Assembly: GCA_041501125.1 (NCBI GenBank) | Contig: JBGQNO010000002.1 | Coordinates: 10,287-74,286, forward strand | DNA from: Candidatus Nanoarchaeia archaeon | GTDB taxonomy: Archaea; Nanobdellota; Nanobdellia; Pacearchaeales; GW2011-AR1 | Direction: 5' to 3' | DNA: 64,000 bases | Notes under the pieces: generated by a model | Databases searched by the model: none | What the model saw: only the letters and a program-made list of their open reading frames with translations | Told to the model about the DNA's origin: nothing | Position numbers and translations under genes: made by a program | Shown: positions 25,693 through 30,062 of the stretch, piece by piece | Position numbering within the stretch: the stretch's first letter is position 1 | Layout: every line of letters starts with the position of its first letter

Positions 25693-25731
25693 AATCTTTC
25701 CTCGCTTTGCGGATTTTTAAATCTTTCTTGC

Positions 25732-26148
25732 TCAGTAAACATAGGATGGAATTTCCACTCCCAGTCTTCTTCCAAGAACAAAATCATTCAAAGCATGAAT
25801 AGAATCTTCAGAAAATGCATGCTCCAGTTCATGAGCCTCATCACAAACTTCTATGTCATCATATTTCATAATCTTTTTAAGAAAATTCTTTATTGTTTTA
25901 TGCCTTTCATGCAGAAACTCTCCAACCTTCATGCCTTTTGATGTCAAAATTACTTTAGAGTAAGGCTCTAATTTCACTAATCCATTAACAGACAATTTTC
26001 TAAGCATTTCTGATACAGATGGCTTGCTGACTTCCAGCACCCTTGCAATTTCAACGCTTTTGATATTATTGTTTACTCCAAGCCCCAATTCATAAATTGC
26101 CCTCAGATAATCCTCTCTGCCTCTCTTCAACCCCTTCTTCAAACCCAT
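25732..26148 (-). CDS. DtxR/MntR-family metal-dependent transcriptional repressor
   Basis: N-terminus REDYLRAIYEL, a winged HTH (VSKPSVSEMLRKL), and a dimerisation/metal-binding region HE..H...E. Confidence 0.8.
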   Translation of the reverse strand: MGLKKGLKRGREDYLRAIYELGLGVNNNIKSVEIARVLEVSKPSVSEMLRKLSVNGLVKLEPYSKVILTSKGMKVGEFLHERHKTIKNFLKKIMKYDDIEVCDEAHELEHAFSEDSIHALNDFVLGRRLGVEIPSYVY

Positions 26149-26168
26149 AAGTTAGGTACGCCTAACTT
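26149..26168. promoter_or_regulatory. palindromic DtxR-box-like operator at the repressor's own start
   Basis: AAGTTAGG-TACG-CCTAACTT has perfect 8-nt inverted arms. It abuts the ATG at 26148 and sits downstream of a TATAAATAA box (minus strand). It resembles the TTAGGTTAGCCTAACCTAA class of DtxR boxes. Confidence 0.5.
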
Positions 26169-26202
26169 ATTTATATAGTTTACCTTTTCCATGAAACAAA
26201 AT

Positions 26203-26208
26203 AAAAAA
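26203..26208 (-). terminator. oligo-T tract directly after tRNA-Glu
   Basis: The minus strand reads ...CAGGGGCA-TTTTTTAT. Confidence 0.4.
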
Positions 26209-26422
26209 TGCCCCTGCCGGGATTCGCACCCGGGTTTCAGCCGTTCTCTAACTGCCTCAAGAAGCTTTTGGCTTTTTAGAGGCACAAACGAAAATTGCCT
26301 GTCCTGAGAGGACAGAGGTTATTGTCTCAACGACTAAACCTCGGCGAGTTTCGAGAGGGCCGCGTCACTAGCCTTTTCCTAATTTTGCAATGAGGAAAAT
26401 TTGGCTGCTAGACTACAGGGGC
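26209..26422 (-). tRNA. tRNA-Glu(CUC) with a 108-nt canonical intron and a second insert in the D-loop
   Basis: Acceptor GCCCCTG/CAGGGGC, anticodon stem CGGCC/GGCTG. A bulge-helix-bulge motif (CGGCC-CTCT-[CGA]-AACTCGCC ... GGCAGTT-AGAG-[AAC]-GGCTG) defines intron 26244-26351 and gives the loop CUCUCGC. T-arm CCGGG-TGCGAAT-CCCGG, A73, no encoded CCA. An extra hairpin TTTTCCT..AGGAAAA lies around 26368-26406. Confidence 0.75.
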
Positions 26423-27382
26423 ATGATTTTGAAAAGTGCAAAGTCTTTTTAAATGTTTAGAGTTAGAAAAGCCAATTTCTTGAATATATTTTTGAATCTC
26501 TGCCTTGCGTGACAAAAATATTTGCCTTCCTCTAATAATTTTAGAAGGATTAAAACCCAACTTCACAAATGAATCTCTTACGTTCTTGAGCAATTTAGGA
26601 ATATAGCTAACAAAAGAAATCCTGAGGTTTTTATTATTCTTTGAGATGTAATGAATTGAACCATCTGTATCTATCAAGCCTCTTATACAAGTTCTGAGAT
26701 AACCCTTATTTGCTTGTATCCATTTTGGAATGCCTTGATTATTCTGTTTTTTATTCCCAGATTCTAAACCCTTCTTTTTCAAAAAATTAACCAGATTTTT
26801 GCCATAAACTGATAGACAGACTGCATTGCGATTTTTAGATTTCATTACGCTTCCTTTTTCTCCAAGCAAATCAAAAAACAAATTTGAAACATAATGTGAA
26901 AGATATTCTTTATCATTCCTGCTATCGCCCGCAATTCTTAAAATGTAACATCTAATCTTCTTTCCTTTCTTGAATTGATTAATATTGCCATCGCCCAATA
27001 TAGTCCCAAATAGCTCTGACAGTCTCTCTGATTCTTCTGGCTCTTTAAATTGCTTGATATTTCTGGAAGAATTAAAGGCACCCTTAACTCTCCCCCAATT
27101 ATCATTTAATTTTTCTGTAACATGTCTACCAAAATCAATGTTAGCAATTCTGCATAATTTGTTATAACTCACTTCTGACAAGAGTACCTTCTCATTTCGC
27201 AATTCATTGCCAGTATAATGAACTGAAAGCCCCAATTGCTCTGCGAGTTTACTCCATGTTTTATCGGACTTAGCTAATTCTACTAATTCCTTTTGTTTTC
27301 CAGGCAGCAATCTTATTCTCACAGAATAGTATAAGATACCGAGGTTAATAAACTTTACTTGGCTACTATACCACAGGGGCAT
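26408..27382 (-). CDS. double-motif LAGLIDADG homing endonuclease with an N-terminal DNA-binding-like extension
   Basis: Motifs LSELFGTILGDGNI and LRTCIRGLIDTDGSI. The ATG overlaps a tRNA-like 5' fragment. The stop TAG is T13-A14-G15 of tRNA-Glu. Confidence 0.85.
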   Translation of the reverse strand: MPLWYSSQVKFINLGILYYSVRIRLLPGKQKELVELAKSDKTWSKLAEQLGLSVHYTGNELRNEKVLLSEVSYNKLCRIANIDFGRHVTEKLNDNWGRVKGAFNSSRNIKQFKEPEESERLSELFGTILGDGNINQFKKGKKIRCYILRIAGDSRNDKEYLSHYVSNLFFDLLGEKGSVMKSKNRNAVCLSVYGKNLVNFLKKKGLESGNKKQNNQGIPKWIQANKGYLRTCIRGLIDTDGSIHYISKNNKNLRISFVSYIPKLLKNVRDSFVKLGFNPSKIIRGRQIFLSRKAEIQKYIQEIGFSNSKHLKRLCTFQNHAPVV

Positions 27383-27413
27383 ATGTTAGTGTAAAATCCC
27401 TTCTTTTAAATAT
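27357..27413 (-). repeat. duplicated tRNA-Glu promoter plus 5' end (upstream copy; the partner is 26399-26456)
   Basis: ATGCCCCTGTGGTATAGTAGCCAAGT vs ATGCCCCTGTAGTCTAGCAGCCAAAT is 22/26 identical. Both copies are preceded by TTTAAAA(A) at about -28 to -22. Confidence 0.7.
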
Positions 27414-27464
27414 TTACCCTTAACTTCTTAGTCCGGAATGAAGTCTGATTAACTTAACAATGTT

Positions 27465-28010
27465 TTAAATCAGCAACAGCACCAGTATTCCTAAGACATG
27501 CAGCACATAACTTAATGGAATGAAAATACTCTGCCTGATTTTAGTAAAACCAGCAAGCATAGTTACTCCTATCTCATCAGGCAAAGGACTTGCGATGATA
27601 AATCCGGCAAATATATACATCAAATAAATCTTGAAATGTTTCTTTAAATGATGAATTGTGTGATTTTCAACTTCTCTCACCAGCTTTGTTCTTTCAAGCC
27701 TTTTAATCTCATCCATAAAAGATAATCTGATAAAATGAAATATCAGCAAATCAGAAAGCATTGCCCCAAAGCCAGCAACCAGGCTTAAAACAAAGATATG
27801 CTCAGCATTGAGAGTTACCAGCAGACCAATAGCAAACGGCGCTGTAAAACCCAAAGGCAAAAGCATTCCTGCAATAAAGATTCCGATATAACCAATATTT
27901 TCAATGCTGGATACATAACTCGAGACATCTGGATTGCTGAATATAACATACGCAAGTATAATTGCTAATACAAGTCCTGTCAGTTTTGGGTATTTATATC
28001 CAAATAACAT
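27465..28010 (-). CDS. polytopic membrane protein (DedA/VTT-like)
   Basis: 181 aa with 5-6 hydrophobic segments. The family assignment rests on weak resemblance only. Confidence 0.35.
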   Translation of the reverse strand: MLFGYKYPKLTGLVLAIILAYVIFSNPDVSSYVSSIENIGYIGIFIAGMLLPLGFTAPFAIGLLVTLNAEHIFVLSLVAGFGAMLSDLLIFHFIRLSFMDEIKRLERTKLVREVENHTIHHLKKHFKIYLMYIFAGFIIASPLPDEIGVTMLAGFTKIRQSIFIPLSYVLHVLGILVLLLI

Positions 28011-28040
28011 TTTTCCTCTTTTTGTTTTTTATAATGAATA

Positions 28041-28113
28041 TAGCCCTGCCAGGATTCGAACCTGGGTCCCAGCCTCCAGAGGGCCGGATCTTTGACCACT
28101 GGACGACAGGGCT
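28041..28113 (-). tRNA. tRNA-Gln(CUG)
   Basis: Acceptor AGCCCTG/CAGGGCT with an A1:U72 pair, anticodon arm CGGCC-CTCTGGA-GGCTG, T-arm CCAGG-TTCGAAT-CCTGG, A73. Length 73 nt, no CCA. Confidence 0.85.
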
Positions 28114-28203
28114 ATAGTTAAAGTATAAAATTGTAACTTAAAAAGTTAACCTTAGACATCCACCTTAGAAAAAATATTTAAACACCCGCTTGCAAGTTAA
28201 TCT

Positions 28204-28515
28204 ATGGGGTGGCTAATAGCAATAGTAGCATTAGTGCTATTGTTTCTTTTCCTGAGAAAATATATCGAACATAAGGTAATTGTAGTACTTCTTGTGCTGC
28301 TATTCGTGTTTCTTCTCGTCTCAGTCATATCTATAAATAGTTCAATCCAGTCCAATAGTATAGACTGGAAAAGCGCAACAGGAATTATCCAGATAGGCAA
28401 GGTCTACGGTTCATGGCTAGGACAGATGTTTACAAATCTTAAAACCATCACAGGCAATGCAGTCCACTTGAACTGGCAGGGAAATCTCCAGAATAACACT
28501 CAAATAAAAAAATGA
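28204..28515 (+). CDS. small membrane protein, paralog of the next ORF
   Basis: Two transmembrane segments. The C-terminal block YGSWLGQMFTNLKTITGNAVHLNW aligns with YIGWFQKVFKNTADITAYAVKQNW of the next ORF. Confidence 0.45.
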   Translation: MGWLIAIVALVLLFLFLRKYIEHKVIVVLLVLLFVFLLVSVISINSSIQSNSIDWKSATGIIQIGKVYGSWLGQMFTNLKTITGNAVHLNWQGNLQNNTQIKK

Positions 28516-28706
28516 AAGTCTGGATGTTTGTTATTTTCTTTCTCTTGTTCGGAGCATTTTTTATAATATCAGCAAATAATCTTGCACTGAAAAACCCAGG
28601 CACTGGAGAAGTATTTCTTGTAAAGTATATCGGCTGGTTCCAGAAAGTTTTCAAAAATACTGCAGACATAACTGCTTACGCAGTCAAGCAGAACTGGATG
28701 CCGTGA
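28512..28706 (+). CDS. small membrane protein, paralog of the previous ORF
   Basis: One N-terminal transmembrane segment and the shared C-terminal IT..AV..NW block. There is a 4-nt overlap with the previous ORF. Confidence 0.45.
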   Translation: MKVWMFVIFFLLFGAFFIISANNLALKNPGTGEVFLVKYIGWFQKVFKNTADITAYAVKQNWMP

Positions 28707-28761
28707 AAAGCCTCAGAAATTTCTAATTTCTGATGGCTATCAAAATTTAGTAAAATTTTGA

Positions 28762-28889
28762 AGCCTCAGGTGAGAATCGAACTCACGACCTCAACATGTC
28801 TGGATTACTCAGGGTAATCCTGAGCACCTTCAAAAATTTTATTTTTGAGGTTACCAATGTTGCGCTCTAACCGGCTGAGCTACTGAGGC
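28762..28889 (-). tRNA. tRNA-Thr(GGU) with a 54-nt intron at 37/38
   Basis: Acceptor GCCTCAG/CTGAGGC, D-arm GCTC-AGCCGGTTA-GAGC, anticodon stem CAACA/TGTTG, loop TTGGTA|A. Intron 28798-28851 folds into two hairpins. T-arm GTGAG-TTCGATT-CTCAC, U73. Confidence 0.85.
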
Positions 28890-29515
28890 GAATAAGAGTT
28901 TATGAAATTAATTTTATCTAAGTTTCTAAGTGGGACTCCTTTTAATATTTTCTGCATATTTCTTTTTGTAGCATAAATTTGATGATAGACATGGTTATTA
29001 TAATGCCAAGGACAAGAAGTAAATGGAATTTTGAGCTTTTTAAAAGTTTCAATACAAAAACTTGCTAAATGCTCGCTCGCAGTAGACAATCCAAAACCAT
29101 TACCCTTTTTACCACCATCAGTGTCCAACAATCCTGCTAACAAGTGAACATAATATTTCTGGGGAAGTTGAGGAATTTTTGCTATTTTTGCTTTTCTTCC
29201 AACAATATATCCTCTGTTTTCTAAAAACTGATAAATTAATTTTGATTCAATCCTGCAATTGTAAAGAGGATTTAATTTATTTTTAACTAATTCCTTTCTA
29301 GGCTTTATTCCAAAGAGCTCAGTAAACAATGGAAGGTAAACCTTATCACAAAAATCTGCAGAATTAGAAATAAAGTAAACATGGTATCTCTTTTGAAATT
29401 TGCCATTTAATCTTCTGGAAGAGGTTATAGGCAACGAGCCATCACCTAATAATAAACCAAAAAGATAAGCCAAATTTTCATTCCATCTTTTAGGAAAGAT
29501 TACTTTATTTAGCAT
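28880..29515 (-). CDS. double-motif LAGLIDADG homing endonuclease
   Basis: Motifs LAYLFGLLLGDGSL and VHLLAGLLDTDGGK. The last codons CCT CAG TAG are positions 2-10 of tRNA-Thr(GGU). Confidence 0.85.
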   Translation of the reverse strand: MLNKVIFPKRWNENLAYLFGLLLGDGSLPITSSRRLNGKFQKRYHVYFISNSADFCDKVYLPLFTELFGIKPRKELVKNKLNPLYNCRIESKLIYQFLENRGYIVGRKAKIAKIPQLPQKYYVHLLAGLLDTDGGKKGNGFGLSTASEHLASFCIETFKKLKIPFTSCPWHYNNHVYHQIYATKRNMQKILKGVPLRNLDKINFINSYSPQ

Positions 29516-29537
29516 ACCACTATTACGCTCTAATTAT

Positions 29538-29563
29538 TTATAAAGATTTGGAAATCTTTATAA
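29538..29563. promoter_or_regulatory. symmetric divergent promoter (paired TATA boxes)
   Basis: TTATAAAGATTT-GG-AAATCTTTATAA has perfect 12-nt inverted arms. Each TTTATAA lies about 27 nt from the ATG it faces (29515 on the minus strand, 29586 on the plus strand), consistent with leaderless transcripts. Confidence 0.5.
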
Positions 29564-29585
29564 GTTCTTCTCTCATCCAAGAAAA

Positions 29586-30062
29586 ATGGAAGACCTTTCC
29601 AAATTAAAAAAAAGTTACGAACATTTTCAGCAGAAATACAAGCTGCCTGGCTTCGAAGCACTCAATCATAGATTTGACATTGAAAAGCTAGCAGACCATG
29701 AAACTGATATGCTTGTTAGAGAAGTGCGAAGAGCTATAATGGAAAAAGCAGCTACCTACTTCAAGTTCATTGAAATCTTCATAAATCCAAGCGCAGCACC
29801 TATGTTCTTTGTTGCAGCCATAAAGAGAATGAATGGCATTGACCGGCAGCCTCTTGAACAGCTCTATGTAGAACTTGGCAAGCTTGAGGTAGACTCCATA
29901 GAGCTTGAAAACTCATATGACGAGAAAAAAGAAGCTGAGTTCATCAAGAAAGTCAATGAAAAATGGGATTCTATTTCAAAAAGATTTGCCGAGCTGACAA
30001 CAAAGATGAAAAAATCTTTTGAAGGCCAGGAAGAAAAGAAAGAGAAAAGCTATTTCGGATAG
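29586..30062 (+). CDS. hypothetical helical protein
   Basis: 158-aa ORF with no recognisable motif. Confidence 0.4.
   Translation: MEDLSKLKKSYEHFQQKYKLPGFEALNHRFDIEKLADHETDMLVREVRRAIMEKAATYFKFIEIFINPSAAPMFFVAAIKRMNGIDRQPLEQLYVELGKLEVDSIELENSYDEKKEAEFIKKVNEKWDSISKRFAELTTKMKKSFEGQEEKKEKSYFG

Follow-up and report, generated by a model that had tools for sequence, protein, structure and literature searches.

The locus described here lies on the minus strand of a window of 64,000 nucleotides (nt), the whole stretch of DNA that was analysed, which is part of contig JBGQNO010000002.1 (GCA_041501125.1) from a Candidatus Nanoarchaeia archaeon. It holds a gene for a LAGLIDADG endonuclease that overlaps a tRNA-Glu(CUC) gene, and a second copy of the tRNA 5' end at the start of the endonuclease gene. 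The open reading frame (ORF), 26408-27382, encodes 324 amino acids from an ATG at 27382-27380 to a TAG at 26410-26408, and its product matches the Pfam families LAGLIDADG_3, above the cutoff of that family, and LAGLIDADG_2. A tRNA-like segment, GCCCCTGTGGTATAGTAGCCAA, begins with the G of this ATG, and the TAG is made up of nt 13-15 of the tRNA 5' end, GCCCCTGTAGTCTAGCAGCCAA, with the tRNA +1 at 26422. The ORF overlaps nt 1-15 of the tRNA and is otherwise located upstream of the tRNA +1. An earlier note on this DNA had described the double-motif ORF with its start and stop codons inside the two tRNA 5' ends, and all of this is confirmed in the sequence, as is the identity of the two 26-nt segments, 22/26 by direct reading (a repeat search reports 21/24). 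With at most 3 mismatches allowed, the 22-nt tRNA 5' end is found at two places in the 64-kb window and nowhere else, as compared to 0.00 expected occurrences (100 shuffles), and a TTTAAAA-type box begins 30-31 nt 5' of each of the two copies.

The earlier note had assigned the downstream copy to an intact tRNA-Glu. In-silico splicing does give a product of 73 nt with a normal cloverleaf, typed as tRNA-Glu(CUC), but the gene itself is interrupted by two introns of 33 and 108 nt. Because of these introns the reconstituted tRNA-Glu was detected neither by ARAGORN nor by Rfam, whether the gathering threshold or a limit of E = 10 was applied. The 33-nt intron in the D-loop folds into a relaxed bulge-helix-bulge (BHB) motif, made up of a helix of 4 bp (AGCC/GGCU), an inner helix of 7 bp and an AAA bulge. 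The motif encloses nothing but this intron, which is situated downstream of the ORF. Rfam searches of 26000-29800 gave no intron family, even with E-values as high as 10. The features of the locus are listed below in the direction of transcription. The upstream copy is called the relic, and numbers such as L086 denote related loci in other contigs, which are either occupied by the endonuclease gene or empty.

27403-27410, minus strand: TATA box of the native tRNA-Glu, TTTAAAAG, which begins 30 nt before nt 1 of the relic and now lies 5' of it
27356-27380, minus strand: relic of nt 1-25 of the native tRNA-Glu(CUC), GCCCCTGTGGTATAGTAGCCAAGTA, the upstream copy of the earlier note; 24/25 as compared to L088, L089 and L090
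27345-27352, minus strand: the endonuclease's own TATA box, TTTATTAA, 30 nt before the conserved start, with a purine-rich GTAAAG stretch before it
26408-27322, minus strand: endonuclease gene from the conserved start codon GTG (27322-27320) to TAG (26410-26408), from Pfam and homologues
26446-26453, minus strand: TATA box of the reconstituted tRNA, TTTAAAAA, within the codons for K-H-L-K-R (26458-26444) and 31 nt before +1
26401-26422, minus strand: tRNA-Glu(CUC) exon 1, nt 1 to the D-loop, imported (in a block 92-97% identical to L086); contains the stop codon of the ORF
26368-26400, minus strand: D-loop intron, 33 nt, relaxed BHB by its fold, imported; absent from the empty alleles
26351-26367, minus strand: tRNA exon 2, in which TGAC (26367-26364) is the imported 3' strand of the D-stem and the native sequence begins at G26 (26363)
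26243-26350, minus strand: anticodon-loop intron, 108 nt, at the canonical position, native and outside the cassette, from ARAGORN on the empty alleles
26209-26242, minus strand: tRNA exon 3 (3' strand of the anticodon stem, T-arm, 3' strand of the acceptor, discriminator), native
26364-27355, minus strand: insertion as compared to the native gene, about 992 bp, with the endonuclease promoter and gene, the tRNA promoter and the replacement nt 1-25 with their intron
26364-27443, minus strand: block common to L086 and L087 at 92-97% identity, made up of the insertion, the relic, the old promoter and a gene end of about 24 nt

The only ORF in the insert of about 1 kb is the LAGLIDADG gene. tRNAs with a D-arm intron, whether or not the anticodon loop has one too, are missed or mistyped by ARAGORN and the Rfam tRNA model, both in the window and in 33 of 70 loci of the endonuclease family. 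As the tRNA finders miss such genes, the genomes that carry them seem in automated annotation to be without tRNA-Glu(CUC) or tRNA-Gln(CUG).

Empty alleles and the boundaries of the insertion

When the endonuclease and the repressor gene directly downstream of the tRNA were looked up as exact sequences, only identical contigs matched; L085 is identical to the window. Empty alleles were located via homologues of the repressor gene, and their contigs were fetched. Three relatives, L088, L089 and L090, have tRNA-Glu(CUC) with the same anticodon-loop intron of 107-108 nt, without the endonuclease and without the D-loop intron. The 5' end of the empty allele reads GCCCCTGTAGTATAGTAGCCAAGTA-T-GCGGCC, and the relic in the window matches it at 24/25 positions, including the GTA strand of the D-stem. 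One uninterrupted stretch of L090 can be aligned first to 27411-27356 and directly afterwards to 26363-26208. The 56 nt of the old promoter and the start of the relic are 87.5% identical to the start of L090, where the promoter runs into an endonuclease-free tRNA-Glu; this is the one empty relative in which a promoter homologous to the old promoter of the window was found. The contiguous alignment, together with the 24/25 match of the relic, shows that the gene originally began with the upstream copy. This original end and its promoter were left in place, and the downstream copy is the imported one.

This reverses the view of the earlier note, in which the upstream copy was a captured duplicate, since in the endonuclease-free alleles it is contiguous with the tRNA body. 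The comparison of related tRNA-Glu loci with and without the ORF, which that note had suggested, gave this native contiguity. The TATA-like boxes that it had pointed out are indeed present before both copies, but the promoter is not duplicated, only nt 1-25 are. The two 40-nt upstream regions agree at 16/40 positions, and 19 of 35 pairs of unrelated tRNA promoters in the window score equal or higher, a level of similarity that by the note's own account speaks against the promoter part of its reading. The difference between the D-stem strands GTC and GTA is also real, but the empty-allele alignment indicates that it reflects separate origins of the copies and not a decay of the upstream one. 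Decay as the source of GTA in the relic is ruled out, as GTA is the native state in the empty alleles. At the base level the native D-stem is GTA/TAT and the D-stem of the cassette GTC/GAC, which implies that the whole D-arm was imported; in comparison with the functional copy, the relic has G9 and A12.

At the putative native site, L088 reads TAGTAGCCAAGTAT|GCGGCCCTCTCG, with the junction at nt 25/26 (GTATAGTAGCCAAGTATGCGGCCCTCTCGAA). Judging from the alignments, about 992 bp (27355-26364) were inserted at this position, and the mature tRNA would be chimeric, with nt 1-25 imported and nt 26 onward native. The D-loop intron, which is absent in the empty alleles and the end of which is located 4 nt from the insertion junction, was demonstrably gained along with the cassette at this locus.

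Occupied alleles are found in the window and in L086 and empty ones in L088, L089 and L090, all at the same tRNA-Glu(CUC). The window chromosome is closest to that of L088, which is empty, with 91.5% nucleotide identity over 7.8 kb. A second pair is formed by L086 (occupied) and L089 (empty), with flanks that are 95.5% identical. The cassette in the window, however, is 92-97% identical to L086 and L087, whose flanks are only about 75-78% identical. As compared to L086, the endonuclease is 93% identical in amino acids and 93% in nucleotides, and the flanking genes 66-76% and 70-76%, respectively; at four-fold sites the identity is 0.80 for the endonuclease (n=91) and 0.46-0.61 for the flanking genes (n=116). 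The L086-like block begins with the last 24 nt or so of a gene that is otherwise missing from the window and continues through the old promoter and the relic to the endonuclease, exon 1 and the D-loop intron. In the 62 nt that precede the relic, 59/61 positions agree with L086, as do 40/42 at the end of the ORF and 28/32 in the D-loop intron, and the similarity ends abruptly at exon 2 (12/16). From these identities the cassette appears to be shared laterally and to be younger than its flanks, a conclusion drawn from one donor-like lineage only. The ratio of nonsynonymous to synonymous substitution rates (dN/dS) between the endonucleases of the window and L086 is 0.14, which, together with a cassette similarity above that of the flanks, fits an active mobile element.

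Some further observations were made on the surroundings. L086 (3249-3304) and L087 (31-86) have a 56-nt insertion with short inverted repeats (CAGAGAC...GTCTCG/TCTCT) between the old promoter and the relic, which could be a miniature mobile element, or could reflect a deletion in the window lineage. Depending on the lineage, the tRNA-Glu(CUC) is flanked by a DisA-like gene, by a gene for 242/254 amino acids, by a MarR-like gene and a gene for 69 amino acids, or by none of these. The 108-nt anticodon-loop intron is about 92-94% identical in relatives with flanks that are about 79-82% identical, and its counterpart in L086 is only about 27 nt long. It matches no Rfam family. Its consensus fold is a canonical BHB with internal hairpins, with compensatory changes in 13/20 pairs, and tRNA-Glu(CUC) introns of 85-105 nt with TCGWTGAGA, an anticodon-arm-like hairpin and GGAGAAC recur in many DPANN loci.

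The endonuclease and the layout of its family

The endonuclease has more than 130 homologues, chiefly in metagenome-assembled genomes of Pacearchaeota, Woesearchaeota and Nanoarchaeota, and most of them are 300-305 amino acids long. The start of the family, MRIxLK, is aligned with codon 21 of the ORF in the window, the GTG at 27322. The two motifs are ILGDGNI and LIDTDGS, and residues G130, D131, G132, D238, T239, D240 and G241 are invariant among 29 sequences. An AlphaFold model, with a predicted local distance difference test (pLDDT) value of 86, consists of residues 1-19, which are encoded by the relic and disordered (pLDDT 23-33), a helical domain at 21-95, a linker and a two-lobed core. 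Foldseek matched the model to I-Tsp061I, I-DmoI and PI-PfuI with a probability of 1.00 and template modelling (TM) scores of 0.70-0.74, normalised to the target, and the predicted core has the monomeric two-lobed alpha-beta-beta-alpha-beta-beta-alpha fold of LAGLIDADG enzymes. With this fold and two motifs with conserved acidic residues the protein can be placed in the LAGLIDADG superfamily, and it presumably makes site-specific double-strand cuts. The N-terminal helical domain (residues 21-95; 27322-27098) is conserved and confidently modelled, and a disordered linker, residues 96-108, joins it to the core. A Pfam search with the N-terminal 100 amino acids gave only a faint helix-turn-helix-like match (E = 0.22). 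The domain may be an extra DNA-binding module that widens target recognition.

To describe the layout across the family, one genome per species was scanned, in which 421 stretches encode relatives; 80 loci were kept, and 79 of these could be evaluated. A structurally valid tRNA is present at the end of the ORF in 70 of the 79 loci, and all 70 are Glu or Gln tRNAs. In 53 loci the stop codon starts at one of two tRNA positions, nt 13 (41 loci) or nt 8 (12 loci). The layout of the cassette is widespread and found in hundreds of related genomes. The common C-terminus of the proteins, A-P/S-V/I-V-stop, corresponds to GCn CCn GTn GTn TAG, a tRNA 5' end in translation. The distance from it to a KHLxR sequence, invariant or nearly so in the family, is constant, and the codons of this sequence (AAA CAT TTA AAA AGA) include the TATA box 31 nt before the tRNA +1. 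In about ten loci (e.g. L004, L009, L012, L015, L017, L044 and L066) the ORF runs tens of nucleotides into the tRNA and the tRNA TAG is unused. Several of these read-through tRNAs have CAG for TAG at nt 13-15, and the proteins have C-terminal tails such as APVVQRPR.

ARAGORN typed 37 of the tRNAs directly, as Gln(CUG) (23), Glu(CUC) (12) and Glu(UUC) (2). The remaining 33 type as Glu or Gln once a single insert of 14-52 nt is removed from the D-arm region, which gives a D-arm intron in 33 of the 70 family tRNAs; the anticodon calls of these rescued tRNAs are possibly over-fitted, and we rely only on their assignment to Glu or Gln and on the 37 direct types. The directly typed tRNAs are almost all C34 isoacceptors, 23 Gln(CUG) and 12 Glu(CUC) as compared to 2 Glu(UUC). 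The endonuclease may prefer, or be tolerated in, an isoacceptor whose codon the U34 tRNA also reads by wobble.

A relic of a tRNA 5' end is found 55-62 nt before the conserved start codon across the family. Its identity ranges from 22/22 (L050 and L064) down to loci where the D-arm part alone can be recognised and the acceptor part is AT-rich. The relic is directly followed by a purine-rich stretch and this by a TATA box, which is located at -29/-30 relative to the conserved start codon in 37 of 63 loci, as compared to about 10% of random positions; in the window the box TTTATTAA is at -30. The phasing of the TATA box to the conserved start implies that the normal expression signal of the family is its own promoter, placed for a leaderless mRNA. 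The idea that the D-arm of the relic is selectively retained was dropped, since universally conserved tRNA positions and the choice of loci can explain most of the pattern.

A proposed homing cassette and its alternatives

We consider it quite probable that the locus is a free-standing LAGLIDADG homing cassette inside tRNA-Glu(CUC) at nt 25/26, and that it restores the gene by replacing the 5' module instead of being spliced out. The proposal builds on the demonstrated anatomy of the locus, the empty sites and the boundaries that they define, the lateral sharing, the purifying selection and the recurrence of the layout in the family. The ORF is outside any BHB or self-splicing intron and any intein, and has its own phased promoter. 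In the proposed mechanism, the native promoter and nt 1-25 of the native tRNA would persist as a dead relic, and the TATA box of the cassette would give a leaderless endonuclease mRNA from the conserved start codon. The tRNA promoter that is written into the KHLKR codons would drive the chimeric tRNA, in which a new acceptor 5' strand and a full D-arm, carrying the stop codon of the ORF and the 33-nt BHB intron, would join the native sequence from nt 26 onward, and two splicing events would be required for the mature tRNA. The enzyme would recognise endonuclease-free Glu and Gln tRNA genes across nt 12-37 or so and cut near nt 25/26, and repair would copy the cassette from an occupied allele, the homology arms being the relic side and the tRNA body. 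Immunity of the occupied alleles would follow from the two junctions, both of which would destroy the site at the DNA level. As compared to the putative native site TAGTAGCCAAGTAT|GCGGCCCTCTCG, the left half-site is matched at 5/14 positions in the reconstituted gene and the right one at 2/12 in the relic, the former largely because of the intron and the swapped D-stem.

Several points weigh against this proposal. The left end of the block shared with L086 is located upstream of the relic and the old promoter, which implies that the latest transfer moved more than the minimal insertion, and simple homology does not explain the left junction. The tRNA-Glu(CUC) locus (about 25700-28100) is a rearrangement hot spot, with different neighbour genes in five lineages, and ordinary recombination rather than homing could account for parts of its history. 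There are also clades with long vertical persistence (L009, L012 and L044, with near-identical decayed relics), and such relics imply that the element has not always been recently mobile. A family-wide comparison of half-sites gave no identical one (10/14 at best), and is to be read as approximate, as the native reconstruction is wrong at 2 positions in the window. About half of the family tRNAs are without a D-arm intron. Finally, we infer cleavage, the target site and the transcription starts, and likewise the endonuclease activity and the immunity, from sequence.

The mechanism of the earlier note, a captured tRNA promoter and +1 region that would mainly express the endonuclease as a leaderless mRNA from the ATG in the relic, has some features of the window on its side. 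The native TATA box is located 30 nt before nt 1 of the relic, the ATG is in frame and the 20 codons up to the conserved start are open. The native promoter is well kept (59/61 as compared to L086), and a few homologues are annotated with similar N-terminal extensions, for instance P0103 with MWYSSQ. However, the family starts at codon 21 with its own phased TATA box, which the window has too, and the sister lineage L086 has 56 extra nt between the promoter and the relic and no ATG. Furthermore, the acceptor part of the relic is lost altogether at many loci, residues 1-19 have pLDDT values of only 23-33 in the structure model, the relic and its promoter are the original end of the gene, and the two promoters resemble each other no more than unrelated promoters do. 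A leaderless mRNA that begins at the relic ATG is physically possible in this lineage, with the native box at -30, but as a lineage-specific trait and not a conserved mechanism, and as the main route of expression we find it unlikely. It is also rather improbable that the element is domesticated or locked in, kept because it holds the only promoter of the tRNA or has a function for the host, with the similarity to L086 a result of ordinary recombination. Loss of the 3' end of the ORF would delete the tRNA promoter, some clades have inherited the element vertically for long and have decayed relics, and there are precedents for co-option of LAGLIDADG proteins, with maturases and WhiA among the structural matches. 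The constraint from the promoter covers only about 45 nt, though, and the dN/dS of 0.14 extends over the whole ORF; the catalytic residues are invariant, two pairs of close relatives combine an occupied with an empty allele, and the flanks are markedly older than the cassette.

Two other explanations start from the upstream copy as a part of a larger structure. One would make it a genuine 5' exon, with the endonuclease, the downstream copy and the small intron spliced out as one giant BHB intron, and the relic does end a few nt from the position of the D-loop intron, with an AGCC that could pair with the GGCU at the 3' end of the intron. This is very unlikely, as the sequence after the relic holds no partner for a 7-bp inner helix and a construct of the relic and the 3' junction folds at -8.2 kcal/mol without a BHB. 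A12 of the relic would oppose the imported G23, a complete tRNA is obtained from the downstream copy, which is preceded by a promoter of its own, the acceptor strand of the relic is AT-rich in many loci, and in L086 the 56-nt insertion is located upstream of the relic. The other would regard the two copies as an attL/attR pair left by integrase-type integration into the tRNA gene, the LAGLIDADG gene being cargo or a later arrival. A 5' tRNA fragment, an insert and a reconstituted tRNA with a new intron near the junction are what has been described for such an event (PMC3293823), but an insert of about 1 kb with a LAGLIDADG gene as the sole ORF and no integrase or recombinase, an ORF that shares its stop codon and the tRNA promoter with the tRNA, and a compact layout in 70 of 79 loci make this extremely unlikely. 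A split, trans-spliced tRNA gene was ruled out, since the flank of the relic has no complement at the 3' junction and the downstream gene is complete alone, and so was an endonuclease encoded in an archaeal BHB intron, of the I-DmoI type, as the only intron bounded by a BHB is the 33-nt one.

Related systems and meaning for archaeal tRNA genes

The closest precedent for the proposed homing cassette appears to be the fungal mitochondrial mORFs, which insert in atp6, atp9, cox2 and nad3 with a replacement C-terminal end and leave the native end as a relic (PMC3630166). Examples are atp6 of Allomyces macrogynus and atp6, atp9, cox2 and nad3 of Glomus (PMC3630166). Like the mORFs, which are LAGLIDADG or GIY-YIG genes, the element has a free-standing gene, a replacement gene end that is laterally acquired, and a relic that is closer to the relatives than the functional copy is. 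The mORFs, however, swap the 3' ends of protein-coding genes, often as an in-frame fusion, whereas the element in the window swaps the 5' end of a tRNA. It is also archaeal and chromosomal, supplies a promoter within its ORF, ends the ORF inside the tRNA and carries a BHB intron. By analogy, the element could be seen as a mirror image of the mORFs that would work alike but falls outside the described group.

Intron gain near a junction is also part of the integrase-based model of Sugahara et al. for tRNA-Thr(GGU) of Caldiarchaeum subterraneum (PMC3293823). The likeness to integrase-mediated integration into tRNA genes lies in the 5' fragment, the insert, the rebuilt tRNA with an intron supplied by the element near the junction, and the occupied and empty alleles in relatives. 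The difference is that there is no integrase or att recombination here; the sole gene of an element of about 1 kb, interlocked with the tRNA, is a homing endonuclease, which implies double-strand-break repair. Collaborative homing has been described for the free-standing F-CphI beside the intron-containing psbA of cyanophage S-PM2 (PMC6083498). There, too, a free-standing endonuclease gene adjoins a gene whose ORF-less intron is located close to or at the position, here a putative one, where the enzyme would cut the uninterrupted allele, and both travel together. In the F-CphI case the intron is a self-splicing group I intron in a protein gene with the endonuclease outside, and here it is a BHB intron in a tRNA with the endonuclease in the former 5' region; about half of the family has no such intron, and protection by the intron is presumed only.

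Among proteins, I-DmoI, I-Tsp061I, PI-PfuI and the Tli VMA intein have the closest solved folds, all monomeric and two-lobed LAGLIDADG. Their genes reside in rRNA BHB introns or are inteins, whereas the ORF in the window is not part of a spliced element and has the extra N-terminal helical domain at 21-95. SegB of phage T4 is likewise a free-standing homing endonuclease, located in a tRNA gene cluster, that favours inheritance of its own region, but it is a GIY-YIG enzyme of a phage, lies between intact genes and neither splits nor rebuilds a tRNA gene (PMC2330249). We found no description of the archaeal arrangement in the literature; our coverage of subscription journals is incomplete, and this absence is no proof.

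A second LAGLIDADG gene, with no detectable similarity to the first, was observed on the same strand of the window (locus 28705-29581). Its ORF, 28880-29515, encodes 211 amino acids, and its TAG is nt 8-10 of an intron-containing tRNA-Thr(GGU) at 28762-28889. The family has 84 homologues, the C-termini of which are translated tRNA 5' ends (ASVA-stop, SPQ-stop and MPR-stop), and in at least 25 of 35 loci from metagenomes it is followed by tRNA-Thr(GGU). A conserved stub, GAGCGyWAyAGTGGT, which corresponds to nt 22-37 of tRNA-Thr, separates the start codon from a TATA box at about -29. In L088 the flanks are the same, the endonuclease is absent, and another tRNA-Thr(GGU), without an intron, is located on the opposite strand.

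The origin of the non-canonical introns, fragments and splits of archaeal tRNAs is a long-standing open question, for which mobile elements are the main hypothesis, with few concrete cases. The locus described here offers a case resolved to the base, in which an intron-free native allele can be compared to a cassette allele with a new D-arm that has a BHB intron, and with an orphan 5' fragment, the promoter of which is retained. The locus also shows that, beside introns and inteins, a homing endonuclease has a third means of residing in an essential gene, namely by replacement of the front end of the gene with a promoter inside the reading frame. Furthermore, the family would provide hundreds of natural LAGLIDADG enzymes with a predictable target in tRNA genes. 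Glu and Gln tRNAs, at which this family is found, are among the six split tRNAs of Nanoarchaeum equitans, where they are split at other positions (PMC3218864). It is conceivable, and we suggest it tentatively, that LAGLIDADG cassettes that swap tRNA 5' modules are a widespread and undescribed class of archaeal mobile elements, and that they are a major source of D-arm BHB introns, orphan 5' fragments and wholesale replacement of tRNA genes in DPANN archaea, and a route to split tRNAs. If this is true, the second family would do likewise at nt 37/38 of tRNA-Thr.

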